The notes under the pieces: generated by a model | Databases searched by the model: none | Told to the model about the DNA's origin: nothing | Seen by the model: the letters and a program-made list of their open reading frames with translations, nothing else | In this document: positions 5,927-35,961 of the stretch, piece after piece | Layout: the number at the start of each line of letters is the position of its first letter | Numbering within the stretch: position 1 is the first letter of the stretch | Made by a program: the position numbers and the translations under genes | UHGV virus genome: UHGV-0167633 | From: a virus | Length of the DNA stretch: 64,000 bases | Direction: 5' to 3' (one strand)

Positions 5927-8900
5927 TCAACTCTCGCGTAGTCATTCATCAACGGATCATCAATTGACAGTGGTACCGTGCGCATAACGCCCGGCTGAGG
6001 CGTGCTGACCTTTACGACAGTTCCCTGGCCTTTCGCCGAGTCTTTGGTGTGCTCTTCAATCCTGGCGAGCAATGAGGTCATCTGCGCAAACAGCCGCTTC
6101 GTTTCACCATCAAGTGAAACGGTATTATCAGCCAACTGCATTGTCGGCTTAGCACCGGAACCGCCAAGGTCACTAATAACCTGCCCGTCTATCTGCATAC
6201 GACCGGTTGGTTGCTGCAAATCGTTGGCGACAGTCGTCATCTGGGACGTGGAAGCTGGTTGAGGAGAATTATTTGAGCGCATTCCCCGGGCATTAATGAG
6301 TTTGTCATACAGTCCATCAATCCCCATTTGTGCGCCGAGCTGGTCAAAGTAACTTGAGTTGTTGGCCACCGGACGTGCCTCTTCAACTGGCATAGGTGTA
6401 TCAACATACACATTGCCAGCAGCCGTTGCGGTCCCCTTCCCTCGTGCACGTTCTTCGAGCGTTCCCTGAACGACTTCCCGACGCATACCCCGGCCATTCA
6501 TGAATTTGTTGACCAGATCGTTAACACCAACAGCATTGCCAATTTTGTCTACCAGACCGCCTTTCTCAAACGGGCTATCACCAGGGGTAAACGCCAGGCC
6601 AGTAGACTGATCGATAACAGCGTTATCAGGTATCTTTTCGTGAATTGCTGGTGCGCTATGATCTACCTTAGAGCCATAAACGGCACCATTATTGAGCATC
6701 TGCTGATACCCTCTGACACGAGTAACATATTCGCCGGTACCGGCGACTACTCTCCCCTTATCAACATGCCCCATACCAGCATGATAGGCAGCTATTGCAC
6801 GACCCTGATCACCGTTATAACGGTTCATCAGCATACTTAGGTATCTGGCGGCACCATCAGCTGCTTTTCGTGTATCCATGGCATCAGCATCGCTGAGTCC
6901 AAGATCCTCCCTTGTACCTTTAGTGATCTGAAAAGCCCCAAGGGCAGATGAAAGTTTGTTCCCGTTTTTGTCTACTGGATTTCCAGTTCTCTGGCCTGCA
7001 CTAGACTCTGCGGATGCAACTGCTGACAGAATCCCTTTTTCAAGCCCATACTTACGTTCCAGCTCATCAAAATAATCGGCATTGTCAGAAATCCATTGGT
7101 ATCCGGCAGCATTTAATTTTGGCAAAGAAACATCCTTGCCATTGTTAAATCGACGTTTATCTATCTCATATGCACTTAATGCTTCCTCCTTACCTGTAGC
7201 AGACTGGCCCAAGGCAGCATCAATTGTTTGTGCTGCTTTATTTCCTGTTTCTACGGCATTTGCATTGATAATCTGATTAGCAGTTTCTTTAACTGTTTTA
7301 TTGCTATCTTTCGCCATATCCAGGGCCGCATTTATCACGCGGGCAGCAATATTAGTCTGTTTGGCATCGGATTCAGCTTTAGAATCAGATGTCCCCTGCT
7401 GGCTATTAACCGGAGCTTTTAACTCTGGAGTGATTTCTTTCGCATTAGCCTCGCCGATCGGATTGGGTATTTTTGATACAATCATTGCCGCAGGGGTATT
7501 TTTAACGGCATCAACCGCTGCATCTAATGCTTTACCTGGTAAATTTTTAACCCCATCCCAAATATTACTAGCTGCCTCTTTAATGTGTTTCCCTGGGTTC
7601 TTAATGAAATCAATTGCACTATCAATTGCATCACTGAAAACCTGTTTCAGGTTATCGACAGTAAAGAAGTCTTTGATGGCATCCAGCTTTTCAAGCAGCT
7701 TATTAGATGTATCGCTAAACCATGCTGAAACAGCATCACCAATCTTTGCTGTGTAATCATCGAACTTGGTAGAAATGGTGTCGCCAAGGTTAGAAATATA
7801 TGTTTCTAAGTTGGTAATCCCACTATCAATGGCCTGGGCAATACTTTCCGTCGAAAATGATTGCAACATATTGCCGATATCCTCAAATCCAAGTGATTTG
7901 AGAACATCACCAATAGCACTGCTAATACCAGATACCAGTCCCCCCAAATCAAGAACATTGGCTAACGTATAAGCGGCTTTTTGCTGGAATGATGGATCTT
8001 GTCCTGATTTAAGCCCAAACGCTCGACGTTGCGCTTCTGTATCATTCCAACCGGTTACCGCATCATAAATACCTCCAGCCACTGTGCCGACTAGGGGAAT
8101 TGCGCGTAACGCCCCTTTACCAACTGCCTTTAATCCAAGTTTACCTGCTGCCCGGGCAGCCAAATCTCCGTCTTCATGGGCGAGAGTCTTCTTGCCACCA
8201 CCGCGTAGCATTCCTACAAGTTTCTTTGCCCCCAGAGCGCCAAAAGCGAGTGCTCCAGCTTTTTTCAGCATGCCACGCCCCATTAACAACGACGCGACGC
8301 CACCGGCCCCCTTCCCTAACAGGCTAAATAATTTGGACAGCAAGCCGCCCTTCTTTTTCCCGGTGTTTTTGGCTATCTGATCAAGGGCGCTGAGAATCTT
8401 GTCATTGCCCTCTTTAATTTCGCTGGTCTGATCCTGAAGTTCCTGAACCGTCCGTTTTTGGGTGTTAACCTGAACGACATCGGCACTATTTTGCGATTTA
8501 CGCCTAAAAAAACCTTTTCTACGGCTGTTATCGTCATTGCCACGAATCACATCGGCAATAGACTTTCTGGCACCATTAAGCGATCCACCAACTTCTTTTG
8601 ATATCCCGCCAAGCTCCTTCCCTGCGGCCCACAATGGACCAGCAACGGCATAACCTAACGCATCGACGGCGCGAGTCTCTGAAGGGTTACCTATGCCTTC
8701 AGCTACTTTTGACAGTTTTTTTAATAAACCTGATTCAGCATTTAGACGCTCATCATCCTCTTTGCGCCTGGCCTTTTCAGCACGTTCAGCACGGGCATCT
8801 TCCGCTGCGGCCTTACTCCCTGGCTTTCCAATAAAACGACCACGCGCATCGCGTTGGTTTTGGCTTTTTTGCGCACCGCCTTTTTGACCGAACATTTCGC

Positions 8901-21948: not shown

Positions 21949-23538
21949 TTACTTAATAAGCAGCGGTACGCCCTGGATACGACGGGCTACGCCAGTCGGG
22001 CAGCAGGCCCAGACTACTTCCCATTTATCGAATTCCGCCTGCGTAACTTTCAGCACATACGGTTCTGTACCGTCAGCATCAGGATCACGAGGAGCCACCA
22101 GAGCGCCGGAGGCGACAAAGCGATCCAAAAGTTTGGTCATCCCTTTAGTCAGACCAGCGGCAGTAATACCGTCAGGGCTATGCTTCATCTGGCGGGCTAA
22201 CTGGACAAAGAAACGGCTGATTGCATTCATCAGGGATGGGACGTGCTGGAAGTGCAGATAGTTATCCTGCGTGCAGCAAGTTAAAGCATCGTCGATGATC
22301 ATCTGGCCAGAGGTGCCAACAGATACTTTATTGAGGCGGCCCTTAACCATTGCTTCTTCGTCCGGGGTATCTTCCGGATACAGCGGTTGAATTGACGCAC
22401 GAGCAATGACGGCACGTTCTTCACCAGCCGGTGAGTAATGCCAACCGCCGACATCAGAGTTTTTCTTGACGCCACGAGCTTTCGCCGCATACGCCGCGCC
22501 AGACAGACCGAAGACCACACGGGATTGGGTCCATTTGTCTTTGCAGGAGAACGGGAAGTGATAGACAGCACAGCTTACATAATCGGTACCAAGTAAACCG
22601 GTATCTTCAACAGCAGAGAGCGCTTCCGTATACGTCAATGTCGGTTTGACATCAAAGAAGCCATCAATCAGGCGATCAGAACAGATATTACCTAACGCGG
22701 TGATCGCCGCATTGTCATAGCAACCCAGGCCGAGAACAGCGGTGTACATGTACGGCGCATTGTTCAGCACCTTAACCGCACGCAGGTAGGCTTCGGTGGA
22801 GATTTTCGACTGATCGCCGTTGGTACCGCCAGTGAACGCCAGTGATTTTTTATTTGTTACTTTCGCGGTCGAAATCAGCTCTTCATTAACAACCGCGCGC
22901 AGATATTTAGAACGGGCTTCCAAAGCCGTAGGCAGATAACACAAGCGGCCCATGTCATCTTTCGCTTCTTCCGCCAAAGACACAGTGTGTGTCTCCAGGG
23001 TCGTTACCACACCGAGCGAAGTCGTCTGGGTCAGTTTTAAGAGGAAGCGTTCATTACCTGCGCTGTCCGCTGTTGCCGTTTCGATGGTTAACTCACGGGT
23101 AGGTGAAATACACGGATCACCATCATCAACGTAGATAGCAAAGGCTTCGCCGCTATCAAGTTCAATTTCAGAACCGTATGGCAACGCACTGTAAGCCGGT
23201 TCGCCTGATTCATCGAACATAATAATCGGGAACTTAGCATCATCCGGAACAGCACGAACAACATAACCAGACGTTTGCTGAATAGCTTCGTACACATGAC
23301 GAATTGGTTCGAACTGTGAGCCGGAAGACGGCTTCAGCGGTTCGCCGAGAACATCTTCGTAATTGGACTCAGTAACCGCCAGAACAGTAAACGGCTTGCC
23401 ACGCGCAAATACGCCAATACCAGCCCACAAGCTGCTATTTAATGCAACACCGGTAGATAACGTCGCATCGGCATTGATCGGGCTAACCGCGACGCCGGAT
23501 GCATTACCTAATGACTGTTGAATTGAATATTGAGACAT
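21949..23538 (-). CDS. large virion protein (tail sheath-like, P1 gene 22 position)
   Basis: 529-aa ORF adjacent to capsid-like gene; assignment by size and position only. Confidence 0.4.
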   Translation of the reverse strand: MSQYSIQQSLGNASGVAVSPINADATLSTGVALNSSLWAGIGVFARGKPFTVLAVTESNYEDVLGEPLKPSSGSQFEPIRHVYEAIQQTSGYVVRAVPDDAKFPIIMFDESGEPAYSALPYGSEIELDSGEAFAIYVDDGDPCISPTRELTIETATADSAGNERFLLKLTQTTSLGVVTTLETHTVSLAEEAKDDMGRLCYLPTALEARSKYLRAVVNEELISTAKVTNKKSLAFTGGTNGDQSKISTEAYLRAVKVLNNAPYMYTAVLGLGCYDNAAITALGNICSDRLIDGFFDVKPTLTYTEALSAVEDTGLLGTDYVSCAVYHFPFSCKDKWTQSRVVFGLSGAAYAAKARGVKKNSDVGGWHYSPAGEERAVIARASIQPLYPEDTPDEEAMVKGRLNKVSVGTSGQMIIDDALTCCTQDNYLHFQHVPSLMNAISRFFVQLARQMKHSPDGITAAGLTKGMTKLLDRFVASGALVAPRDPDADGTEPYVLKVTQAEFDKWEVVWACCPTGVARRIQGVPLLIK

Positions 23539-23598
23539 AACTTTCCCTGTTATGCGCCCCGCACGGGGGCGCTATGTTAAACGGAGAACTTCCCCTGA

Positions 23599-25326
23599 TT
23601 ACTCAGAGTCACCGGCATCAATCGTGTCGCCGCTTATGAAGTTAAGCCCGCCTTTTTTGGCCATTGTCAGCGTTACACGAGTGAAGTAATCAGCGCCGTT
23701 GCGTGGGTGCATATCGTTGATAGCCGAACCCCACAGCGTGGTACGGTTGACCAGCGCCGGAGTGGTCGGATGCTGGAACGGGATAGCCGGGACTGCATCA
23801 CCAGTTACGAAGCCCGCTTTGCCCGGATTTTCATCACGGACGTAGCACAGCACATCCATTGGGCTGAACTGGATACCGTCGGCGGTCAGGTTCGTACAAA
23901 TACCTTCTGGTACTTCGAACACTTTGACGTTGCCGAACAGAGTGCCAATGTAGTGGACGTATGGGGTCTGGATGTAATCTTCTGCTGGCTGGAAGAAATC
24001 CTTCGGCAATTGTTTGAAGAAAGATGCCGCATCAGCACCGGCATACATCCCCATCGCACCAGAAGATTTAACACGCTCAATAATACCGCGATATACCGTC
24101 TGGAATTTGCCTCGAACGATAGTTGCCCACACATCAAAGGACTGGTTAGCTGGCAGAGCAATATCAAAGGTGTCGGTCGCAAGAGTGCGCCAGATCATGA
24201 TGCGAAGACGCAGCATATCCTGTTCATGAGACAGGTATTCCTTCAGGGTGCGGAACTGTAGGGAACCCAGGTCCAGACCAAATTCACGCTGTGCTTCATA
24301 CGCCGCCTGTACCGTGTGCTCAGCCGCGATAACGAACTGACTTGGGAACAGGGTGTATTTCTTCATTTCGTGGTTGATCAGCGGGATCAGCTCAGGAGCG
24401 GCTTCAATATTGATTTCCGTCTCAATTGCGATCTCAGTGCCTTTATCCGGCGCTTTGGAGAACGACAGGGCAATCTGACCAATGTTGTAGTTCAGAGAGC
24501 AGGTAACAGTGATTTGCTCACCAGCAGCATTAGTAAACGAGTGAAGTAGGCTGCCGGAACCGTTATCAACAACAGACTTAATACGGTTAACGTAGATGTT
24601 AGTGCGACCTTTTCGGATTGGTACATTCTGGCCTTCGAAGTCTTCCATCTTGAAGGTTGCGGTTTTGCTAGTGCCATCGGAGCTTGCCACCAGCACATAG
24701 CGGCGACGTAACTGGCTGTACACACCGACGGATTGCATGTCCAGAACATCACCAGCAGCATAAGAACCAAAAGAGGAACCTGCCACGTTAAAGACTTCAT
24801 AGATGTCGGACTGGTCACGCGTAACCGGAATGAAGGTACACGCATCAGCGGTAGCTGCCCCCAACTGAACAGGCAGGATCATCGCGAGGAATAAAGGCAG
24901 ACGCATAACACCGTCAGAAACGCTCATCATCTCTGCTGCGACGGATTCCAGCATCGCTTTATTAGTGGCATCCATGCTATTGCGGGTGGACTCAATCAGG
25001 CAGTTTTCCAGCGTCTGGTGGCAGGAGGCCAGAATTTCCGGACGCGGCATAGATTTATGTGCTGCGGCGTAGTCAGCCAGTGCACTTGCCCACGCTGTAG
25101 CGATTTGAGCGGTGGCATTATCAGAGATACCCGCAAAAACCGGGTCTTTACGTGCAGCTTCAAGGATAGATGCGGCACGCGCGGCATCATCTTTAATGAA
25201 TTGGTTATCAGTACCGAACTGCGCAGTGCTTGCCCAGCCAAGCACAGCTTTAGAGCGTTTTGCGATATCTGCAATACGATTCTGGTATTCGCGTAAGTTA
25301 CTCAATTTACTCTTCCTTAAACACAA
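23599..25326 (-). CDS. large virion protein (major head protein-like, P1 gene 23 position)
   Basis: 575-aa ORF next to parS; probable true start is the TTG at 25303-25305, preceded by RBS AAGGAAG. Confidence 0.4.
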   Translation of the reverse strand: MCLRKSKLSNLREYQNRIADIAKRSKAVLGWASTAQFGTDNQFIKDDAARAASILEAARKDPVFAGISDNATAQIATAWASALADYAAAHKSMPRPEILASCHQTLENCLIESTRNSMDATNKAMLESVAAEMMSVSDGVMRLPLFLAMILPVQLGAATADACTFIPVTRDQSDIYEVFNVAGSSFGSYAAGDVLDMQSVGVYSQLRRRYVLVASSDGTSKTATFKMEDFEGQNVPIRKGRTNIYVNRIKSVVDNGSGSLLHSFTNAAGEQITVTCSLNYNIGQIALSFSKAPDKGTEIAIETEINIEAAPELIPLINHEMKKYTLFPSQFVIAAEHTVQAAYEAQREFGLDLGSLQFRTLKEYLSHEQDMLRLRIMIWRTLATDTFDIALPANQSFDVWATIVRGKFQTVYRGIIERVKSSGAMGMYAGADAASFFKQLPKDFFQPAEDYIQTPYVHYIGTLFGNVKVFEVPEGICTNLTADGIQFSPMDVLCYVRDENPGKAGFVTGDAVPAIPFQHPTTPALVNRTTLWGSAINDMHPRNGADYFTRVTLTMAKKGGLNFISGDTIDAGDSE

Positions 25327-25435
25327 GGCACTTGTGTGAATCCCTTTTCGGAAGAGATTTTATTGAAAGTCACTTGTTGACTTTCTCGTGACAAGTAATT
25401 TTTTTATTTTTTTCAGGAGTAGGGGAGGAAGGTAA

Positions 25436-25528
25436 AATTCAAGGTGAAATCGTGGCGATTTCACCTTGAAATTTTTGAGGGATCTACTTTAAAAACAGTA
25501 GGTTAATAGTGAAATTTGAATGGCGAAA
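25436..25528. promoter_or_regulatory. parS centromere (ParB box A/B repeats flanking an AT-rich IHF-type spacer)
   Basis: Palindrome GGTGAAATCGTGGCGATTTCACC (heptamer ATTTCAC plus hexamer TCGCCA motifs) and GTGAAATTTGAATGGCGA separated by AT-rich spacer, immediately downstream of parB. Confidence 0.75.
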
Positions 25529-25530
25529 GT

Positions 25531-26532
25531 TTAAGGCTTCGGCTTTTTATCGAGGCTCTTTCTAAGGATATGCCCAATCATCCTGTCGAGTTCTTCCTGT
25601 AACTCTTTTGAAAGTCGATTAAACTCATAAGAAAATGCACGGCCTTTCACGCGCTTCCTTGCAAAGCGATCCTTGTCCTCAAATTTCCATAATTCAGTAA
25701 CTACGGACTTATCTTTAGAACCTTTATCCGTGAGTAGTGAGGCTTCCTTTGTTATCAAGCGCAGGATTTTATTTTTAACTTCATCTTCGGCCATTTCTTC
25801 AATGGATAAGATGTCGTTTATTTCCGGGGATATGTTTTGAATAAGCTGATCAAACTCTAAATTCTTGTTCCCCATTTCGTCGCCAACAGCACAAAGCGTT
25901 TTGTAGTCCGAAAAGGTTAATTCCGACTGCACAGGGAAAAGGGCGACTAATTCTTCCGGAGCACTCGCTGCCTGGAGAGCACGCGTGACCTTCGCCTGAG
26001 ATAGCCCTTCTTTGGCTGCAATATCCTTCTGACTCATCCCATCATTTTTCATTCGCATCAAACGCAGACCTATTTCTCGAATGCTGTGCTGCAATGCTGT
26101 CTGAACGTCTTTCGCTAAATTTTGCGCTTCCTGGACGCTGATCTCCTGGTCCGTGACTAAAACCCGCAACCCTACGTTCTCTAAGATGGCAGAAGCTCGA
26201 CGCCGGGAACCATCCAAAATTTCAATTTTCCCTGTAGCACGTCTAACACCTATTGCAGGGTAAAATTGCTGATGCTTAATAGTGCTTCGGATACTTTTTA
26301 ATGATTTTGGCGTAAGAGATGCCTGGTCACGCCCGTTGTTATGCTGATCAACAAAGGTATCGCTTTCTACCTGGTTCGGAGGTATTACCTCTTCAATAAA
26401 TGTGGCCTGGCGACCAGTTGATAACTTGAATACCTGCTCGACTCGATCGCCAGAGGCTGAAGAACTATCAAATCCGCTTAATATTGAAGGATTAAGGGTT
26501 CGCCCAATTGTTGGTCTGTTTTTCTTTGACAT
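25531..26532 (-). CDS. parB: partition protein ParB
   Basis: 333-aa ORF downstream of parA and adjacent to parS; ParB-like HTH region; same length as P1 ParB. Confidence 0.9.
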   Translation of the reverse strand: MSKKNRPTIGRTLNPSILSGFDSSSASGDRVEQVFKLSTGRQATFIEEVIPPNQVESDTFVDQHNNGRDQASLTPKSLKSIRSTIKHQQFYPAIGVRRATGKIEILDGSRRRASAILENVGLRVLVTDQEISVQEAQNLAKDVQTALQHSIREIGLRLMRMKNDGMSQKDIAAKEGLSQAKVTRALQAASAPEELVALFPVQSELTFSDYKTLCAVGDEMGNKNLEFDQLIQNISPEINDILSIEEMAEDEVKNKILRLITKEASLLTDKGSKDKSVVTELWKFEDKDRFARKRVKGRAFSYEFNRLSKELQEELDRMIGHILRKSLDKKPKP

Positions 26533-26548
26533 GGGGGTTTCTTACTCC

Positions 26549-27745
26549 TCAGTTAGATCTGATAAATTCAATACGGTCAAAAACTGCTTTAGCAAAATCT
26601 TCCGCGGCAATTCGCGCGTTCTTCAATGCATCAGCACTACCAACATACGTTGCCGGGTTAGCTGAAATAACAGTGTCAAAAGACTCGCCGCAACGTTCAA
26701 AACCGTCAAGGCGAGGGAGGACGACATCGAGCATATCCCCACCGAACACTTCTTTAGCCAGGCTATGGCAATACTTATGATCTGCCTTGTTACTCAACTT
26801 GGACATAAAACCAATGTTAGTCGCAAGCTGGCACTCGCAGCCTTCATCCGAAATGAGTTTCACCAACTCAGGAAGGCGGGCAACGTATTTAAGCGATGAG
26901 TGGAAATCGACAGTTGCTGGCGGCAGAGGTGTAAACAGTATATTGGCCGAGGCCAAAGCATTTTTCAGGAAGGCGTCAAGGTGAGGACCACTATCAACGA
27001 GGATAAAGTCATAATCGCTCTTCAGCTTATCAATCACATTTTCTTTCAGGACAGCATGGATGTTCTGACCCGGTAGATGCTCATTGCACAGCTCTCTCCA
27101 ATCGGATGCAATAAAGGCATCGTCAATCGACGCAGGCATAACGTCAACCCCAGGTACAACAGAAGGAACAATAAACTCCTCTAACAGCTCTTCACGGCTT
27201 ACATTCTGCAACATAGCCTGTGCAGATGTTGCGTTTACGATACCAATAGAGTGTTTATGGCTTAAAAACATCGTTGCTGAAGATTGCGGATCAAGGTCAA
27301 TAACCAGAATCCTTAAATCCTCCATAAGAAGATGAGGGTGAGCACGCATTGCATGCGCCAGAGAAACCGTCGATACAGTTTTTGACACACCGCCTTTAAG
27401 ATTGGAGATGAAAATCACATAAGCTTCGCTGTAGCGATCCCGGTATTTTGGCACTCCGCGATGTTCATATATGTCAATGATGTTCTGAATTGACATCGCA
27501 TATTTCATTGAAGAGCCAGCAGGGCGTTTATCGAAAACATAACCCTTTTCTTCCATTTCACTTACGGCATAGTCAACGTTCGCTCGAGTCAGTAGAGGCA
27601 ATTTTGCCAGTGCCGCTTTCGCATAGACCTGGTAAAACTCGTTCGCGTGTAGCTCATCCTTTTGCAACTGTACTTGTTCAGTCAGAACATTGAGCATTCT
27701 GTTTGCTCTTTGAGCAACCTTGTGAAGCTGGCTGGAATCACTCAT
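26549..27745 (-). CDS. parA: partition ATPase ParA (type Ia)
   Basis: 398-aa ORF; deviant Walker A KGGVSKT; N-terminal DNA-binding extension typical of P1-type ParA. Confidence 0.9.
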   Translation of the reverse strand: MSDSSQLHKVAQRANRMLNVLTEQVQLQKDELHANEFYQVYAKAALAKLPLLTRANVDYAVSEMEEKGYVFDKRPAGSSMKYAMSIQNIIDIYEHRGVPKYRDRYSEAYVIFISNLKGGVSKTVSTVSLAHAMRAHPHLLMEDLRILVIDLDPQSSATMFLSHKHSIGIVNATSAQAMLQNVSREELLEEFIVPSVVPGVDVMPASIDDAFIASDWRELCNEHLPGQNIHAVLKENVIDKLKSDYDFILVDSGPHLDAFLKNALASANILFTPLPPATVDFHSSLKYVARLPELVKLISDEGCECQLATNIGFMSKLSNKADHKYCHSLAKEVFGGDMLDVVLPRLDGFERCGESFDTVISANPATYVGSADALKNARIAAEDFAKAVFDRIEFIRSN

Positions 27746-27880
27746 CGAAAGTCATCCTTTATGCTGTATTTTTGAATTTAATTAAAAATGCTGCATAAAA
27801 TAATAATGTATGCGTAGATGCTTGTACATAGCATTCTCTGCATGTTTGGTTCATTTTGCACGATAGAGAGTTGCAAGGAG

Positions 27881-27906
27881 GGCACAAAAAAGCCCCGTTC
27901 AGGGGC
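27881..27906 (-). terminator. rho-independent terminator after the inserted T5orf172-like gene
   Basis: On minus strand GCCCC-TGAAC-GGGGC followed by TTTTTTGTGCC, 8 nt after the stop at 27914. Confidence 0.6.
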
Positions 27907-27913
27907 ATCAGCG

Positions 27914-28723
27914 TTATTTGTTAAGAGCTGCGAATAATCGTTCGAAATCGATAGTATCTATAGCACGCGTTAGCGCCGGAAGTTCAGCCTCAAAGCACCC
28001 GTTTCGATCGTAAAAGAAGGGACCGAAGAGCGAGGCATGTTGGATTCTACTTCGCCCCAGTCCGGACACACAGTTAAGCCCATTACCAGCTAAAAGGCTA
28101 AAAAACTTCTCTGGATTATCGTGGTAAAGCTGGGAATCAATGATGGCGGTTAACTCTTCCATAGGGAAGCACACCCGCCCTGTCTCCCAGGGATATTTAG
28201 TCCGAAGCGTAAACATCGCTTTCAGCAATTCACATTGAGCGCGGATCGCGTCAGGTTCATAGCCAGATATGGAGACATAAGCCACATCCCTCATTCCTGC
28301 GTCATCTTTGAAAGTCACGATAGAAGTAACATCCAGTTCTTTTTCGAAAGAGCGAGCAGCATCTACTGGACGCTGAAGTAAATCATTCGACTTAATTCGC
28401 TCGAGAATCCCTCCCCACATATCATTTAGATATTCGATATGAGCCAAAACCTTATCAAGACACTCTCGTGTAAACCATTCAGTATGCCCGCCACCGGCGC
28501 TTTTCTCCCACGGCGCATTCCAGGGGAAAAAGGTTGCGTGTAAAGCCCGCTCAAGATTAACCATTGCCAAACGCGTACCACGATAGACCCGTGAAAGCGC
28601 AAAATCGGGACTCACTTGTAGCCCTTTAAACCGTGCCAATGGACCACATGAAATGCCGATTTTAAAAGTATCTCCGTTCTCCGGCACCAGAACGTAGAGG
28701 TAGTGTTGTTTCTCTTCTTGCAT
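27914..28723 (-). CDS. T5orf172 / GIY-YIG-like domain protein with unassigned C-terminal domain
   Basis: 269-aa ORF; N-terminus HYLYVLVPENGDTFKIGIS...R...L...GHTEWF fits the T5orf172 pattern; wedged between RepA iterons and parA with own terminator. Confidence 0.5.
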   Translation of the reverse strand: MQEEKQHYLYVLVPENGDTFKIGISCGPLARFKGLQVSPDFALSRVYRGTRLAMVNLERALHATFFPWNAPWEKSAGGGHTEWFTRECLDKVLAHIEYLNDMWGGILERIKSNDLLQRPVDAARSFEKELDVTSIVTFKDDAGMRDVAYVSISGYEPDAIRAQCELLKAMFTLRTKYPWETGRVCFPMEELTAIIDSQLYHDNPEKFFSLLAGNGLNCVSGLGRSRIQHASLFGPFFYDRNGCFEAELPALTRAIDTIDFERLFAALNK

Positions 28724-28755
28724 ATCAATACCACTGCTTGATGAGAACCGCGCAA

Positions 28756-29012
28756 ATGTTGACTATGCGCGAAAGTTAATGTGAATAGTTGACTATGCGC
28801 GATGTGACTACAGTCAAAAGTTGACTGTAGTCGATTTAACTCCACCAAAAATCGACTATGTAAGATATTGTCGGGAGAAACGTTGACTATACGCGATGAA
28901 ATGACCCTAAAAGCCATCTCAATAGCGACTTGCAGAATATTGACGCCAGCAAAAATCCACCAGCGTCAACGAATGTCGCCTATAGTCAACTTCTCGCTAT
29001 CGCATATAGTCA
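28756..29012. repeat. iteron array downstream of repA (incA-like copy-control repeats)
   Basis: About nine copies in both orientations of core TTGACTATRCGCGA / TCGCRYATAGTCAA (e.g. 28756-28770, 28786-28800, 28880-28894, 28972-28989, 28998-29012). Confidence 0.7.
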
Positions 29013-29015
29013 ATA

Positions 29016-29957
29016 TTATGGATTGCGCTTATGGATCTGGAAGCCGATTTTCCTGCCGTTTTTTATCTCTGAAAATTTAAGATATTCAATAGCTTCCAAA
29101 TCTTTCATAGCTTTTCTGATAACGCTATTTTGCACGCTAACGGATGATTTGAGATTAAGCCTTGCTCTAAGGCGCTCAATGCTGACAGGTGCCGGGTTGG
29201 CGGGTAGAGCCTCAAAGAATGTATACAGCACCTTGGCCGTCTCTTTGCGCCCGAGCTTATCCAGCATCTTCAGCTTCAGGATTCGCTTATAGTCAACATA
29301 GTAAAGTTCAGATAGCTGTTTCTGCGGCTGGATCTCGATAACATCAAGCTCGGTATTCAGGCTGCTATATGCCAACAAGTTGACGTTAATGTTATTGAGA
29401 TGACCTTTTGCCGCCGGGAAGCGGAATTTGACAACTGTCTGCTGAATGCGTGTCAGAGAGTCATCAATACTTTTACGGAACGCCTTTGAAAGGCGCTTAC
29501 GTGGATAGCCGCATCGATCGGCAAACTCGGAGAATGGCAGGGTGATTATGCCGTCATCATCAGGTGCGTAGTCAAACAACGCGGAGGTTATGCCCACCCA
29601 CACCTTAAAATCAGTATCCATATCCAGGCGTGGACCATGTATTTCAATTCCCTCATAGCCTTCCTGCTCAACAATTTTGAGGCTTGATAGTTCTTCGGTT
29701 GCGTTCGTTGTGTTTGTAGTAACTGACGATCCGCGACGTAGTGCCACATTGGTAGATTTTAAGGTTGGCACAAACACACCTAAGCGCAACAAAGCGATGG
29801 GTTGTATAGTGCTATTGTTATTGGGTTTCAGGCTGTGGATTTCTCCTGTATTTCCTGCAACTTCTTCAACGCTAAGGAAGCCTTTATTTTCTTCCGGCAT
29901 CGTGGTTTCTCCATATGTGGCGCGGCCTGGCGTCATCTGGATTGCAGTTATCAACAA
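29016..29957 (-). CDS. repA: plasmid replication initiator RepA (iteron-binding)
   Basis: 313-aa ORF flanked by iteron arrays on both sides; winged-helix Rep-type architecture. Confidence 0.85.
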   Translation of the reverse strand: MLITAIQMTPGRATYGETTMPEENKGFLSVEEVAGNTGEIHSLKPNNNSTIQPIALLRLGVFVPTLKSTNVALRRGSSVTTNTTNATEELSSLKIVEQEGYEGIEIHGPRLDMDTDFKVWVGITSALFDYAPDDDGIITLPFSEFADRCGYPRKRLSKAFRKSIDDSLTRIQQTVVKFRFPAAKGHLNNINVNLLAYSSLNTELDVIEIQPQKQLSELYYVDYKRILKLKMLDKLGRKETAKVLYTFFEALPANPAPVSIERLRARLNLKSSVSVQNSVIRKAMKDLEAIEYLKFSEIKNGRKIGFQIHKRNP

Positions 29958-29977
29958 CTGTGAATAGTCAGGCTCTA

Positions 29978-30081
29978 AAATCGCGTACAGTCAATGTTTC
30001 TGTCGCGTATAGTCAACAATAAATCGCGTGCAGTCAACAATAAATCGTGCACAGTCAACATAAAATCGCGTATAGTCAATG
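29978..30081. repeat. iteron array upstream of repA (incC-like origin repeats)
   Basis: Five direct repeats AAATCGCGTRYAGTCAAY at ~21-bp spacing (29978, 30001, 30021, 30042, 30063). Confidence 0.75.
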
Positions 30082-30083
30082 TT

Positions 30084-30191
30084 GATCCCATTTCAGGCCA
30101 GAAATGGCGCGGCTTACAGCGATCCGGGATCTTCTTTGGATCTTCCTAGGTTCTCTTTAGGATCTGTTTATTGGATCTATGCTGTGGATAA
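30084..30191. promoter_or_regulatory. plasmid origin segment: GATC cluster plus DnaA box
   Basis: Six GATC sites within ~95 bp (30084, 30121, 30128, 30139, 30161, 30174) and TGTGGATAA (DnaA box, 30183-30191) directly adjacent to the iterons. Confidence 0.55.
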
Positions 30192-30234
30192 GTTGAATAA
30201 ACCGGCCAATAAAGCCGGTTGGAAGGAAGCCGTA

Positions 30235-30627
30235 TTATTCTACGCTCTCGATAAGAAGACCATGTTCATAACATTTAAGCTCATCGCCTTCGTACAGGAA
30301 TTGGTATCCAACACCACCATCTTCATGGACATTAGGGAATAACTCATAACTCACTGAAGAGCAAATCACACCAATGCAACGATCAACGCCTTCTCGTTCT
30401 TCAGTGCTGAAAAAATCCTCTTCGGTAAGAACATGAGTACATTGCTCATCAGCATAGGTCGGAAATACATGCTCGATGCAATCCGGGTGTTTTAAACCAA
30501 GCTGATCGGCAAGCTCGAAAGCATGACGGTATTGTTCAGATCCTGGCTTGCCAACAGTGATGTGCTCAATTTTGTAGATTGAAGTCGCTTTGTTGATAGT
30601 TTGCTTTACTGTTACTTTATCAGACAT
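30235..30627 (-). CDS. hypothetical protein
   Basis: 130-aa ORF; no motif recognised. Confidence 0.4.
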   Translation of the reverse strand: MSDKVTVKQTINKATSIYKIEHITVGKPGSEQYRHAFELADQLGLKHPDCIEHVFPTYADEQCTHVLTEEDFFSTEEREGVDRCIGVICSSVSYELFPNVHEDGGVGYQFLYEGDELKCYEHGLLIESVE

Positions 30628-30638
30628 AAAAATCCCTT

Positions 30639-30971
30639 TTAGTTACCGCTGATAGCGCGGTTGTAATCATTAACGTTGCGATTCTTCCTGTTAATCCCCA
30701 TCAGCATCGTTTCTGTATCGAGGATATACGCTGGCAGATCATCAAAATATTCACTGCTAAACTCTGGCATCCTGCACATAAATGCACTTTTTGGGGCAGG
30801 GTGGTTAACCTTTGTCGGCGTCGGCGTTAAATTCGCTGATCGACTCCCGGAGCAACCGCTGAGTGTCAGCAGGAATACGCTGACGAACATTACCCGCCGC
30901 AACAAGTTGTTTCTGAACTTCAGCTTTTCGTTCCATTTGCCTGTCAGCATACTTGGCTTGTTCTGATTCAT
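30639..30971 (-). CDS. lipoprotein
   Basis: 110-aa ORF with lipobox LTLSGC after a hydrophobic signal segment. Confidence 0.55.
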   Translation of the reverse strand: MNQNKPSMLTGKWNEKLKFRNNLLRRVMFVSVFLLTLSGCSGSRSANLTPTPTKVNHPAPKSAFMCRMPEFSSEYFDDLPAYILDTETMLMGINRKNRNVNDYNRAISGN

Positions 30972-31254
30972 TTTTCACTTCCTGGCTGTGAAAATGTTGC
31001 TCTGCTTTGTTCATCGTCTCAATGGTCTGGTTAAGATCCATTATTGACTTATCACGTTCCTTAACAGCCTGATCAAGACTGCCAATTTTCTCCATGGCTT
31101 GCTTTAGCTGATGACGTTCCCACGCAAACCCAGCACCAACAAGTGCGCAAATCAGAACAAGAACACCAGTAGCAGCAAGTTTCTCCTTCAAAGACAAAGC
31201 TGTTTTTAACGTAGAAAAGAATGACATGTCTTCCTCCTGAAGAAAAATTATCAA
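30805..31254 (-). CDS. membrane-anchored coiled-coil protein
   Basis: 149-aa ORF (likely start MSFFSTLK); one TM helix then coiled coil; 3' end overlaps lipoprotein gene out of frame. Confidence 0.45.
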   Translation of the reverse strand: MIIFLQEEDMSFFSTLKTALSLKEKLAATGVLVLICALVGAGFAWERHQLKQAMEKIGSLDQAVKERDKSIMDLNQTIETMNKAEQHFHSQEVKNESEQAKYADRQMERKAEVQKQLVAAGNVRQRIPADTQRLLRESISEFNADADKG

Positions 31255-31266
31255 TGAAGTCCTTTG

Positions 31267-32055
31267 TTACCGTGCCGCTTTGTTTAATTCATCAAGAACA
31301 GAATCAGGAACCAAAGCGGCGACTGCGCTGGCTGTGCTGGCCTTATTTGCTGATGCTTCCGCAAGCGCGGTACCGATAGCATGGTTATAAGCAGTTATGG
31401 CTACGTTGGCGCTTTCATTCGCTCGCTCATGCTGCTGTTGTAACGCAGTTGTGGGCGCTGTTGTCTGGTTGAAAACAACCCCAAACTGTTCAGTTGCTAC
31501 TTTCAGAGATTCAATTTGCTCTTCTGTTAGTGTTGGTGGGGGAGTGGCAGTGCCGCCGCCTGAACCAGAGCCTGACGAGCTTCCTGAGCCAGTGTTAAGG
31601 GTCTGGTTAATCTCCCCCATAGCAGCGACTAAACTTGATGTATTAAGCGCGTTAACAGCGTCCTCAAGCGATTTAGTAATATTCACATCGCCAATGGCAA
31701 TAGAGATCGGCAGTTCTGAAACTTCTCGCTCATTAGCACGGCAGTAAACATCCCAACCAATATCGAGTTGAAGCAGCATTGACAGATCTGCATAACCAGC
31801 CAACAGGTCCGCGTGCTTAGTTGCCAGTTCTCCAATGTTCGTTAAGCCGGTTGTGGTTGTTCTGATCGTTGAAACATAGCTGGTAATAGTGTCGGGATAG
31901 ACAATTGTATCCAGAATTAATCCGGTCAATTCTTCTGCAAGCAGTTTTGCTGTGTTAGCACTGTTTCGTGCCGATGTTATGGCACCAGGTGTTTTCATCC
32001 CACCGGCGGCGGCCAATTTTTTATATGCGGATAACTGGTAGTCTTTTTCCAGCAT
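31267..32055 (-). CDS. hypothetical protein with Ser/Gly-rich linker
   Basis: Start set to ATG at 32053-32055 (strong RBS AGGAG) rather than the ORF-track start at 32112; GSGSSSGSGSGGG linker. Confidence 0.45.
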   Translation of the reverse strand: MLEKDYQLSAYKKLAAAGGMKTPGAITSARNSANTAKLLAEELTGLILDTIVYPDTITSYVSTIRTTTTGLTNIGELATKHADLLAGYADLSMLLQLDIGWDVYCRANEREVSELPISIAIGDVNITKSLEDAVNALNTSSLVAAMGEINQTLNTGSGSSSGSGSGGGTATPPPTLTEEQIESLKVATEQFGVVFNQTTAPTTALQQQHERANESANVAITAYNHAIGTALAEASANKASTASAVAALVPDSVLDELNKAAR

Positions 32056-32063
32056 GATATCTC

Positions 32064-32348
32064 CTAACTTACCTGAACCAGGCCGTCTCCGGACGCTACG
32101 GTAGATCCGCATGAAACAGGGTCACCAACGCATACGATCCCTTTACCATTGACGGTAAACCATGCCCTGGTTGATATAGCTTGCCCACCGTGCGTACTGT
32201 TTCCATCGGTATGCTGTGCATATTGCTTGCCATCAACTAACACTTCGACTCCGTTGACTTTAAGTAGTGGTTCACTCTCTACAGGAGGCCTGGATGGGAA
32301 TCCTCCGTGCCCCGAACAAATGCTGTCTTTTGTTGCAATACTTGCCAC
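32064..32348 (-). CDS. small Gly/Cys-containing protein (PAAR-like?)
   Basis: 94-aa ORF; repeated NG.V / GDPVSCG-type motifs; weak resemblance only. Confidence 0.3.
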   Translation of the reverse strand: MASIATKDSICSGHGGFPSRPPVESEPLLKVNGVEVLVDGKQYAQHTDGNSTHGGQAISTRAWFTVNGKGIVCVGDPVSCGSTVASGDGLVQVS

Positions 32349-32427
32349 GTCATCACCAATTATTTGCTCTGATTTTCGTTATTTTAACTCAGGTTATTTG
32401 TGGTCTACATGGCTGTTACCTATTGCA

Positions 32428-32444
32428 AAATTGCTCTAATAAAT
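32428..32444 (+). promoter_or_regulatory. C1-repressor-type operator
   Basis: ATTGCTCTAATAAATAT (16/17) upstream of the rdgC-like/dmt operon. Confidence 0.55.
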
Positions 32445-32445
32445 A

Positions 32446-32802
32446 TTGTTTTTTATGTCGTATTTTCGGTACCATTCAGCCATCGCCCTTCAATGGGCAT
32501 TTGTTTGGAGTCGTCAGATGCAGATGGAGCTAATAAGCCGCAAAGAGTTCGATAGCCGTGTAACCTGCGGTGAACTCGACAACTTGCAGGCTATCAAGGT
32601 GAAAGAAGGCTTTTGCCTCATTGGGAATCAGAGCGGAACAAATCGCGTTTTTATGCTTCGCCGTACGGATTTGAAGCCATTTGTCTGGAAGAACGAAATT
32701 GGTCCCAGCTCATACGCTCAAACGAGGGGGTGCCACAACCTGGCCTTTTTCTACAAAGACGAGCTTTCTGTGGTTGATATTCAAGGGTTACAACATGTTT
32801 AA
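32446..32802 (+). CDS. hypothetical protein
   Basis: 118-aa ORF upstream of rdgC homolog; start uncertain. Confidence 0.3.
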
Positions 32803-33700
32803 GCACTGGAAAAACATTACTATTTATAAACTTTCTCGTGAGGCGGATCTGACCGACTTAGAAGATAAGAAGAAAATGATCCTTTTCACGCCATGCGGTA
32901 GTCAGGATATGGCCAAGTTCGGTTTTGTATCTCCATTTGGTGATAATTCCGAAGTTATCGCTATGCATGGAAATGGTTTTATCCTTGTTGAAGCAAAGCG
33001 CGAAACAAAAATTCTTCCCCCGCCGGTTATCCAGCGAGCTATTCAAGAAAAAATTGAAAAACTTGAGCAAGAACAAGCGCGTAAACTGAAGAAAACAGAG
33101 AAGGACTCCCTGAAAGACGAAGTTCTGCATTCTCTTCTGCCACGGGCTTTTTCAAAGTTTTCTGTTATCCAGGCGATCTACGACGGTTCAACTAAACGTA
33201 TCTATATCAATGCCAGCGCGCGGCAGGCAGAGGATATGCTCGCGCTTATGCGTAAATCTCTGGGTTCTCTTCCTGTTGTTCCCCTAAGTGTTGAAAATCC
33301 CATTGAATTAACGCTGACCGACTGGGTACGTGATGGTAGTGCTCCACAGGGATTTCAAATGGGGGATGCGGCAGAACTTAAGGCAGTGCTTGAGGATGGC
33401 GGTATTGCCCGAGTGAAAAAGCAGGATTTGGGAAGCGATGAAATTTCCACACACCTGGAAGCTGGCAAGCTCGTCACTAAGTTGGCACTCGACTGGCAGA
33501 ACCGCATTAAATTTACACTGGACCATAACTTCAGCCTTACCAGCGTCAAATTTGCGGATGAATTGCTTGAGCAGAACTCTGATATTGATAGTGAAGATGT
33601 TGCGCAGCGACTGGACGCAGATTTCTTCCTGTTGACCAGTGAAATTTCGTGCCTGGTTGATGCTCTGGTAAATGCCCTTGGTGGAGAGGCTAAGCAGTGA
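32795..33700 (+). CDS. hrdC: RdgC-like recombination-associated protein
   Basis: Start at ATG 32795 ([16 protein letters not shown], cf. E. coli RdgC MLWFKNLMVYRLSR); stop overlaps dmt start. Confidence 0.7.
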
Positions 33701-35961
33701 AAGAGCTGTGCTATGGATCTGTTTGCAGTGGAATTGAAGCCGCGAGTGTTGCCTGGGAACCGTTGGGTATGCGTCCGGCGTGGTTTGCTGAAATCGAGCC
33801 TTTTCCATCTGCCGTTCTTGCGCACCGCTGGCCCCATGTCGCCAACCTTGGCGATATGACAAAACTTGCCAAAAAAGTCCTGGCTGGGGAAATCGAATCC
33901 CCTGATGTGCTCGTCGGGGGAACACCTTGTCAGGCATTCAGTATCGCTGGATTACGTGGTGGGCTTGATGATGAGCGTGGCGCGCTAACTTTAAAGTATG
34001 TGGAGCTTGCAAATGCAATTGACGACAAACGGGCTGAGTCATTTCTCAAACCGACAGTTATCGTCTGGGAAAATGTCCCAGGAGTCCTGTCATCGGCAGA
34101 TAACGCCTTCGGATGTTTCCTTGCCGGATTGGCTGGAGAAGATGCGCCATTTGAACCAGGTGATCGACCTGAATCAGGAAAAAGTAACGCGTTCTGGCGG
34201 TGGGATGGCAAAACCGGTTGCCATGCTCCAAAGTGGCCGCAGTGTGGTTGTATTTATGGACCGCAGCGAAAGGTGGCCTGGAGAATCCTTGATGCCCAAT
34301 ACTTCGGAGTGGCACAACGACGCCGACGCGTGTTTGTTGTCGCAAGTGCTCGAACAGACCTCGATCCCGCAACGGTACTTTTTGAGTTCGAAGGCGTGCG
34401 CCGGAATATTGCGCCGAGCCGAAAAAAGAAGGAAATCGCTTCCGCCATTATTGCAAATGGCGCTGCAATCAGTGGCGAAAGCCTAAATCCATGCCTACAC
34501 GCTGACATGCCACCCGGTATGAAATCGACGAAAGCCGTAAACGCTTTCAGGATGGCAGCATTTGGGGAATATATTGACGATGAAACCGCATCGACAGTAA
34601 AGGCAAGAGATTTTAAAGATGCCACTGACCTTGCCGTTTTTAGCAGCACAGGAGCAGGTTTTTGGTCAGAAGGGCATGGTACATTGCGGGCACGTGAGCA
34701 AGAAAGCCATGAGCATCTTGTTACATTGGCTTTTCCTGAGCGTATGAGCGGTACACAACATGCTGCAACTAAGAATACTTCACCATCTCTAATGGCTAAA
34801 AATCCAACAGCTGTTTGCTATGAAGTAAGAAACGCAGAAGTAGCTGTCCGCCGTCTTACCCCTATCGAATGTGAAAGGCTGCAAGGTTTTCCTGATGGGC
34901 ATACGTTGATCCCGACGGAAAAGCGTAAAAAAGTTAATTCAGATGAACTGGCATATCTTCGCAATCACTATCCAGATTTAAGCGAAGAAGAGGCCGCGAT
35001 GTTTGCAGCTGACGGACCGCGTTACAAAGCGATCGGCAATAGTATGGCGATACCAGTAATGCGCTGGATTGGCGAGCGGATTACCAAGGCTGCATGTCGG
35101 CAGAATGAAGGGCGTGAAACAAAAGAGCGAAAAGTTAAACCTGCGGCAGAATTCGAACGGTCCATATTCAAATGGGCTGGTGGAAAATTTGGTGTTCTGG
35201 AACAAATCTTTCGCTATTTGCCAGAAGGGAAGCGCCTAATTGAACCTTTTGTCGGTGGCGGATCTGTCTTCACGAATGCCGGATACCAGGAAAATCTGCT
35301 AAATGATGTGAATGCTGACCTGATTAACTTTTACAAGACTCTGCAACGCGAGGCGCATTCACTTATCACTCTGGCACATCGTTTCTTCCAGGACTACAAC
35401 ACACAGGAAGGATACCTGGCAGTACGGAATGCGTTTAACAAACAAGTCTATGATGATTTACATCGCGCAGCGGCGTTTTTGTTCCTGAACCGACATTGTT
35501 TTAACGGATTGACGCGTTACAACCAGGCCGGTGAGTTCAATGTCGGTTATGGGAAGTATAAAACTCCGTATTTCCCATTACAGGAGATGGAAGCCTTCCT
35601 CGGTGCGGAAGGGCGGTCTGAGTTTGTATGCGGTGATTTTGCAGCGGTGATTGAAGCTGCCGGAGAAGGAGATGTCATCTTTTGCGATCCGCCGTATGAA
35701 CCGCTTCCAAATACAGAGGGATTCACGAACTATTCCGGTCATGACTTTAAGTTTGAAGAGCAAAAACGCCTGGTGTCTCTGTTGACGGATGCTCATCGTC
35801 GAGGTGCAAAGGTTCTCATTACTAACAGTGGCGCGCCAAACATCAGAGAGCTTTATCATGACAGTGGCTTCAGAGTGGAACCTCTTTTTGCCAGACGTTC
35901 TGTGTCTTGTAAGGGGGACACTCGAGGTGTAGCTCATGACGTTCTGGGCATATTGCTCTAA
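33697..35961 (+). CDS. dmt: bifunctional DNA methyltransferase (N-terminal C5-cytosine MTase fused to C-terminal Dam-type N6-adenine MTase)
   Basis: 754-aa ORF; C5-MTase motif [12 protein letters not shown] near N-terminus, ENV motif, and DPPY (CDPPYEPL) in C-terminal half. Confidence 0.85.

Follow-up and report, generated by a model that had tools for sequence, protein, structure and literature searches.

A T5orf172/GIY-YIG-family gene with an orphan acidic C-terminal domain is an accessory component of the p0111-type replicon cassette of P1-like phage-plasmids

Results

The gene lies inside a replicon cassette that is non-homologous to P1

The window (hereinafter, the whole 64,000-nucleotide stretch of the viral genome UHGV-0167633 that was analysed) is a P1-like phage-plasmid, in which gp23 (major head protein), parB, parA, a T5orf172 gene, repA, upfA, mlp, ppfA and upfB follow one another, all encoded on the minus strand. 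A blastn comparison with phage P1 (NC_005856) detects homology only at positions 23001-27847 and 30097-34000. The 2249 bp in between (27848-30096, minus strand) are non-homologous to P1 and constitute a p0111-type replicon cassette, which stands in place of the 1491 bp of P1 that comprise incA, repA and the incC iterons (the IncY block) and which contains origin iterons, repA, incA-like iterons, the T5orf172 gene and a terminator. This replicon type is that of SJ46, RCS47 and JL22, and the cassette in the window is identical to that of NZ_CP104510.1.

Within the cassette, repA (29016-29900, minus strand; an 885-bp repA in the annotation of RCS47) encodes a Rep3/RepFIB-like p0111 initiator with Pfam Rep3_C and Rep3_N matches that is 41% identical to P1 RepA. 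The longest repA open reading frame begins with a TTG at 29957; the homologues in RCS47 and in the divergent element L003 (see below) start at an ATG equivalent to 29900, and the extra 19 codons (29901-29957) are probably untranslated. Five origin-side (incC-like) iterons with 21-bp spacing occupy positions 29976 to ~30100 (repeat families D1 and D2), and the right edge of the cassette at 30096 falls directly after the last of them. The incA-like iteron array (28754-29017), defined by repeat families D3, D4 and D5 and inverted pairs I1-I25, lies between repA and the T5orf172 gene and carries the core TCGCGyATAGTCAAC in both orientations. The same incA-like iterons are present in L003.

The sequences that border the cassette are common to P1. 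On the right, part of oriR (30097-30220) is homologous to P1 from locus 7808 on; its GATC cluster and DnaA box are placed by mapping coordinates onto the P1 annotation only. On the left, a promoter scan finds the par promoter Ppar (27800-27828, minus strand; TGTACA, 17-nt spacer, TATTAT), which maps by position onto the annotated P1 Ppar, and the left edge of the cassette lies 19 bp 5' of its -35 hexamer. The downstream parA (26549-27745) and parB (25531-26532), both on the minus strand, are of the P1 type and match their P1 counterparts at >99% identity. The window therefore has Ppar, parABS and the GATC/DnaA-box part of oriR in common with P1, but not the initiator, either iteron set or the T5orf172 gene. 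The original prediction had described the T5orf172 gene as a single-gene insertion in a P1-type repA-incA-par unit; this description does not survive the comparison, because the whole 2249-bp block is non-homologous and RepA is so distant from its P1 counterpart. P1 contains no remnant of the T5orf172 gene.

A T5orf172 domain is joined to an acidic orphan C-terminal domain

The T5orf172/GIY-YIG-family gene (27914-28723, minus strand) spans 810 bp with its stop codon and encodes 269 amino acids. A terminator scan places an intrinsic terminator (27906-27892, minus strand), which has a 5-bp all-G/C stem and a T-run after it, 8 nt past the stop codon. The terminator is one-directional and stands between the gene and Ppar. 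Both the gene and its terminator are as originally predicted. An AGTGGT-like stretch, read directly from the sequences, precedes the ATG by 5-6 nt in the window and in the divergent lineage alike, and a scan of the minus strand between repA and the gene finds neither a sigma-70 consensus promoter nor a terminator.

The N-terminal nuclease-like domain (residues 1-100; 28424-28723, minus strand) bears the motifs YLYVL, FKIGIS, R31, ExxLH and GHTEWF. The family assignment made in the original prediction is borne out by a profile search, in which residues 8-85 align to positions 2-87 of the 101 positions of Pfam T5orf172 (PF10544) with 27.5 bits and E = 4.7e-6, above the curated gathering score of 20 bits. 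A precomputed PF10544 assignment exists for P0001 and for the divergent homologue P0004, and the Pfam search also returns sub-threshold matches to MUG113 and to Tox-URI2, the latter with a URI (GIY-YIG-type) fold. The protein matches PHROG 2876 (unknown function) from end to end, and it also matches PHROG 681 ('endonuclease') over the nuclease portion at the C-terminus of that family; PGAP names it 'GIY-YIG nuclease family protein', and NCBIfam contains no match. In phage JL22 the same gene is listed as 'gp57, unknown protein', and a replacement of repA (IncY) by repA (p0111) together with an unknown gene has already been described (PMC9603915). The record of phage phi456 (OR339795.1, 39982-40788) mislabels the gene as 'terminase small subunit'.

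Structure prediction agrees with the profile assignment for the N-terminal domain. The N-terminus of the AF2 model resembles SLX1-type GIY-YIG nucleases and has the GIY-YIG alpha/beta fold, and the best Foldseek matches of the model in BFVD are viral T5orf172 proteins and endonucleases, all of them through the N-terminal domain only; the pLDDT of the full-length model is just 57.7. Residues Y8/Y10, K21-I-G23, R31, H62 and E82-W-F are invariant across the two lineages, which are 44% identical, and are also common to relatives in Cupriavidus that have different C-termini. Y10 and R31 align to the GIY-YIG protein EF2693, and E82 is the putative catalytic glutamate, assigned by the 'TEWF' motif alone and not by residue-level alignment to a characterised enzyme. 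The Cupriavidus relatives are two tandem genes (annotated 320 and 276 aa) on a megaplasmid of Cupriavidus sp. USMAA2-4 (L049, 3953-5750); their N-terminal T5orf172 domains are 33-34% identical to that of the window protein and their C-termini are unrelated. This arrangement suggests a wider class of proteins that couple an N-terminal T5orf172 domain to a variable C-terminal domain.

The remainder of the protein comprises a linker and the orphan C-terminal domain (residues 101-269; 27917-28423, minus strand), the domain proper being residues 129-269. Both this domain (pI 4.7-4.9 across the two lineages; ~4.8 for residues 129-269) and the whole protein (pI ~5.5) are acidic, and no helix-turn-helix or zinc-finger signature was found in the 269 residues. 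A PHROG 'transcriptional regulator' match reaches E = 0.2-0.4 in only one of the two homologues. Specificity domains of homing endonucleases are not usually acidic.

The statement that the C-terminal ~170 residues are unrecognisable stood up to every profile and structure comparison made. A profile built from the two known versions of the domain and searched with HMMER against 1.84 billion representative proteins yields four matches, all of the same family or fragments of it; a word-indexed search of 5.8 billion proteins finds no homologue outside the family; and PDB sequences, Pfam, NCBIfam, PADLOC and PHROGs contain none. A model of the C-terminus on its own has a pLDDT of 41 and is unusable, Foldseek against the PDB returns nothing meaningful for this part, and no fold can be assigned at the AF2 confidence reached. 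An origin from a replication initiator, as in the ICP1 origin-directed nuclease Odn, is rejected at the sequence level: BLASTP against the RepA proteins of P1, p0111 and L003 gives nothing at E < 1, and hhalign of the C-terminal profile against the RepA profile gives a probability of 0.2%. One further protein contains part of the domain, namely P0005 (ABN773_26325, 197 aa, from an E. coli plasmid), in which a foreign 79-aa N-terminus is fused to residues ~106-223; this foreign N-terminus has no match in the window or in the sampled loci.

The gene is a regular component of the p0111 cassette and is absent from other replicon types

In PLSDB, ~400 plasmids have the cassette at >=95% identity and 402 records have the gene, which also occurs in 12 phage records. 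Among complete E. coli genomes, the cassette occurs in 419 of 5426 (7.7%), nearly always on plasmids, and the block is 96-100% identical among these genomes and the ~400 plasmids. IMG/VR holds 44 copies, all >=96% identical except for a 54-residue fragment at a contig end (91%), and a scan of GTDB species genomes yields a single copy (97%).

Beyond this tight cluster, the only divergent homologue among 5.8 billion proteins is P0004, which is 44% identical to the window protein. It is encoded on L003, a 95.7-kb P1-like contig whose lineage is absent from PLSDB and INPHARED and has a backbone ~70% identical to the window at the nucleotide level, and on which the order repA, iterons, gene, parA, parB is retained. 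P0004 (L003 8001-8936) has been called from a start codon that lies 41 codons too far 5', within the iteron array; conservation begins at M42. That two lineages ~70% identical keep the gene in one position suggests a long-term vertical association rather than repeated invasion.

The repA-parA junction differs between replicon types. All p0111-type junctions compared contain the gene, with repA and parA ~1270 bp apart, and the IncY-type junctions, where the distance is 350-562 bp, lack it. The gene is also absent from a third replicon type with ~430 bp between repA and parA, represented by two loci (L116 and L117; repA 5989-6876, parA from ~7259); their RepA is 41% identical to IncY RepA and 49% to p0111 RepA and is paired with different ParA and ParB proteins. 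Given its absence from IncY and third-type junctions, the gene is not a conserved backbone gene of all P1-family replicons, and no maintenance role is known for it, in keeping with the original view of it as something other than backbone.

Three other P1-like contigs encode a RepA with 71-72% identity to the IncY RepA of P1 and, directly 3' of repA, have an open reading frame of 312-314 aa (L107 6939-7883, plus strand; L108 6936-7880; L109 6913-7851). This reading frame has only a sub-threshold match to Mrr_cat, of the restriction-endonuclease fold (E = 0.082), and no PADLOC match; the position 3' of repA may thus hold a nuclease-like gene in these contigs too.

Intact copies are under relaxed purifying selection and null alleles recur

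The T5orf172 gene evolves faster than any other gene in the region, far ahead of repA and parA. Between the window and L003, RepA is 84%, ParA 89%, gp23 80% and ParB 67% identical, compared with 44% for the T5orf172 protein and 32% for its C-terminal 170 residues. The corresponding dN values are 0.52 for the whole gene (0.29 for the N-terminus and 0.69 for the C-terminus), 0.13 for repA and 0.07 for parA. Among close alleles, dN/dS is 0.17 for the gene, 0.02 for repA and 0 for parA, indicating that intact copies, their N-terminal nuclease-like domain included, are under purifying but relaxed selection.

Null alleles are present in 8 of 45 sampled loci (~18%) and stem from at least four independent events; the other 37 loci are intact. 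Five loci share an amber codon at S112 (TCG>TAG; L009, L010, L014, L016 and L018), SJ46 (L040) has an ochre codon at Q228 (CAA>TAA), L042 has an amber codon at W68 (TGG>TAG), and in the IMG/VR locus L045 (6294-8058) an IS200/IS605-type element stands in place of gene nucleotides 295-523. The element in L045 contains a TnpB-like open reading frame of 389 aa and a TnpA-like one of 141 aa, its family having been read from the sequences and not profile-tested. In the O111 str. 11128 plasmid NC_013370.1 the gene is annotated as split. A protein cluster (P0003, 229 member sequences) consists of a 168-aa 'protein' that starts at M102, and the amber-112 allele probably accounts for it.

Because these null alleles occur in naturally maintained elements, SJ46 among them, the gene is not needed for replication or partition. 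The original prediction of an accessory rather than a core maintenance gene is thereby upheld, and the gene is a regular but dispensable component of the p0111 cassette.

The cassette reassorts with its flanks

The upfA-mlp-ppfA-upfB flank (window 30097-32400) exists as two haplotypes ~4-5% apart, hereinafter designated window-like and P1-like. Elements with the IncY replicon have the P1-like flank in 6 cases, the window-like flank in 16 and an intermediate one in 11, and elements with the p0111 replicon in 6, 34 and 1 cases, respectively. Both replicon types are thus combined with both flank haplotypes, and the block therefore reassorts with its flanks. A published ancestral-state analysis of 193 Salmonella elements counted 17 switches between IncY and p0111 (PMC11165635). 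The diversity of the cassette (96-100% identity) is not below that of the flanks, and the signature of a recent sweep is therefore not seen. The gene is present or absent among elements with >99% identical parAB, a contrast that is confounded in that the whole replicon block differs and not the gene alone.

The two types rarely reside together. Of the complete E. coli genomes, 419 carry p0111, 361 carry IncY and 778 carry one or the other, which by inclusion-exclusion leaves 2 genomes with both types against 27.9 expected. We do not count this deficit in favour of a nuclease, because it would equally follow from the near-identical par system that the two types share or from P1 immunity.

Discussion

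P1-like phage-plasmids are frequent in E. coli and spread ESBL and other resistance genes, and their two replicon types, which often switch, are used for typing. A nuclease gene inside one of the two replicon blocks is a candidate driver of replicon switching or of exclusion among related elements. The gene, its family label in the databases and the cassette replacement (PMC9603915) were already known. What is new here is the definition of the exact cassette boundaries, the acidic orphan C-terminus, the single divergent homologue with its retained synteny, the contrast in evolutionary rate with the neighbouring genes, the recurrent null alleles, and the link to the literature on T5orf172 homing endonucleases.

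We tentatively favour the explanation that the gene product is an accessory nuclease, from the T5orf172 branch of the GIY-YIG superfamily, engaged in conflict between mobile elements, acting on relatives that lack the cassette or on other invaders; we regard this as possible rather than probable. The gene would be transcribed in the plasmid (prophage) state, chiefly from the repA promoter with read-through of the iterons, and the transcript would end at the gene's own terminator just before Ppar. The protein is predicted to cut DNA, with the C-terminal domain setting what is cut, or when. Damage would fall on related elements without the cassette, such as IncY-type P1 relatives, or on other invaders, and the rival replicon block would be replaced through recombinational repair, or the rival excluded. 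Such a role would resemble that of the free-standing GIY-YIG/T5orf172 homing-endonuclease-type genes of phages. Phage T5orf172 genes have been described as putative homing endonuclease genes located next to essential genes and at the borders of exchanged segments, and two of them have been domesticated, Odn as a nuclease that cuts the origin of a rival and CapR as a repressor (PMC10448857). Two features of this type are seen at the locus described here, namely presence or absence at a recombination boundary and frequent degeneration of copies. We do not put the explanation more strongly because the C-terminus is acidic and unrecognisable, the position has been fixed over the long term, and homing, cleavage and exclusion are purely predicted.

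A more specific form of the same idea, which we rate as quite unlikely, is a nuclease that drives its own replicon by cutting the IncY-type block of co-infecting or co-resident P1-like elements, so that repair from the p0111 copy replaces the rival replicon. Its targets would be the IncY iterons, RepA-bound DNA or the incA-Ppar spacer, and the acidic C-terminus would recognise a protein-DNA complex, not naked DNA. If true, it would account for the frequent switching from IncY to p0111 and also for the fact that hardly any genome carries both types.

The strongest competitor, which we rate as doubtful, is that the prophage carries the gene as cargo for anti-phage defence or abortive infection, as a single-gene effector whose C-terminus would sense a phage trigger and release the nuclease on invader or host DNA. 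In favour of this reading, the C-terminus evolves fast next to a conserved nuclease domain, and its acidic, non-DNA-binding character suits a sensor or regulatory domain; the promoter and terminator scans make expression from the plasmid state likely, the gene is accessory and often lost, and defence systems have been described on P1-like elements (bioRxiv 10.1101/2025.09.12.675607). Set against this, no model in PADLOC-DB v2 matches the window protein at E <= 1 or P0004 at E <= 0.1, no partner gene accompanies it, and it never occurs outside one replicon cassette, in contrast to the usual mobility of defence genes among hotspots. The original guess at a defence, anti-defence or addiction gene finds no direct support, PADLOC having returned no match for either the window protein or its homologue. 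A defence gene, if that is what it is, would represent a single-gene system of a new kind, in which an orphan domain is the sensor.

Another alternative is a replicon accessory factor that would act at the p0111 iterons or on RepA, for example by nicking, by controlling copy number or handcuffing, or by resolving replication intermediates; the basic RepA (pI 9.3) would be bound through the acidic C-terminus. This is unlikely, given that null alleles persist in naturally maintained plasmids, that the related RepFIB, IncY and SSU5-type replicons function in its absence, and that RepA (84%) and the iterons are conserved between the lineages when the C-terminal domain is only 32% identical; hhalign does not relate that domain to RepA either.

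The CapR precedent (PMC10448857) suggests a further alternative, in which the protein would be a domesticated, catalytically silent T5orf172 DNA-binding regulator that tunes par or repA or represses genes of a rival. T5orf172 was first described as a DNA-binding domain, the UniProt names of the Foldseek matches still say so, and the gene adjoins two regulated promoters. The GIY-YIG-type motif residues are nevertheless all kept and invariant, the protein is acidic overall, and in place of a helix-turn-helix or zinc-finger signature there is only the PHROG hint in one homologue, which together make this reading highly unlikely. A decaying, functionless passenger, the relic of an old insertion hitch-hiking with a successful replicon, would account for the ~18% of null alleles and for the fastest rate in the region, but is just as improbable in view of the dN/dS of 0.17 among intact alleles, the 37 of 45 loci that are intact, and the full-length frame and domain layout conserved between the lineages despite synonymous saturation.

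For the favoured explanation of a nuclease in conflict between mobile elements, and for its competitors, the natural amber alleles are ready-made controls. Should the gene prove to have no measurable effect, the p0111 cassette could be treated as repA and iterons only.

Comparison with known systems

The p0111 cassette and the IncY replicon of P1 and P7 share the order origin iterons, repA, control iterons, par operon, with RepA proteins 41% identical and with a nearly identical DnaA/GATC part of oriR and parABS. They differ in the junction, in that the stretch from incA to Ppar in P1 is gene-free (locus 6317-6487, ~170 bp) and p0111 has the 810-bp gene and its terminator there. The entries in PHROG 2876, PGAP and JL22 represent the same protein at 96-100% identity, and these sources come without an assigned function, an analysis of the C-terminus, null alleles, rates or a divergent homologue.

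The GIY-YIG homing endonucleases of the I-TevI/Seg type in T-even phages are proteins of ~250 aa with an N-terminal GIY-YIG-type domain of ~95 aa, a linker and a C-terminal domain, a layout to which that of the window protein is alike, and their genes, like the window gene, are present in some and absent from others of otherwise homologous genomes. Their C-termini are basic helix-turn-helix or zinc-finger DNA-binding domains, in contrast to the acidic C-terminus of the window protein, and the window domain belongs to the T5orf172 sub-family, in which K replaces the second Tyr (KIG).

The T5orf172 genes of the ICP1 type (Barth, Dunham & Seed 2023, PMC10448857) resemble the window gene in combining the T5orf172 domain with a variable second domain, in being phage-borne and free-standing, next to essential genes and at the margin of a block that relatives exchange, and in the frequency of nonsense and insertion alleles; homing by these genes is likewise putative (PMC10448857). 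They differ in domain order, since DNA-binding modules are N-terminal in ICP1 proteins of the CapR/Odn type and the nuclease domain is N-terminal here. Moreover, no zinc finger of the CapR/DUF723/DUF4397 type or other DNA-binding module is recognisable in the window protein, whose second domain is an acidic orphan and whose gene is single-copy and fixed in one plasmid-replicon slot. With Odn (T5orf172 plus RepA_N; PMC8263062, PMC10448857) the window protein does not share initiator homology in the C-terminus, as judged by BLASTP and hhalign. Both are T5orf172 nucleases or predicted nucleases tied to replicon biology, and it is on Odn, by analogy, that the proposed attack of the window protein on the replication region of a rival is modelled.
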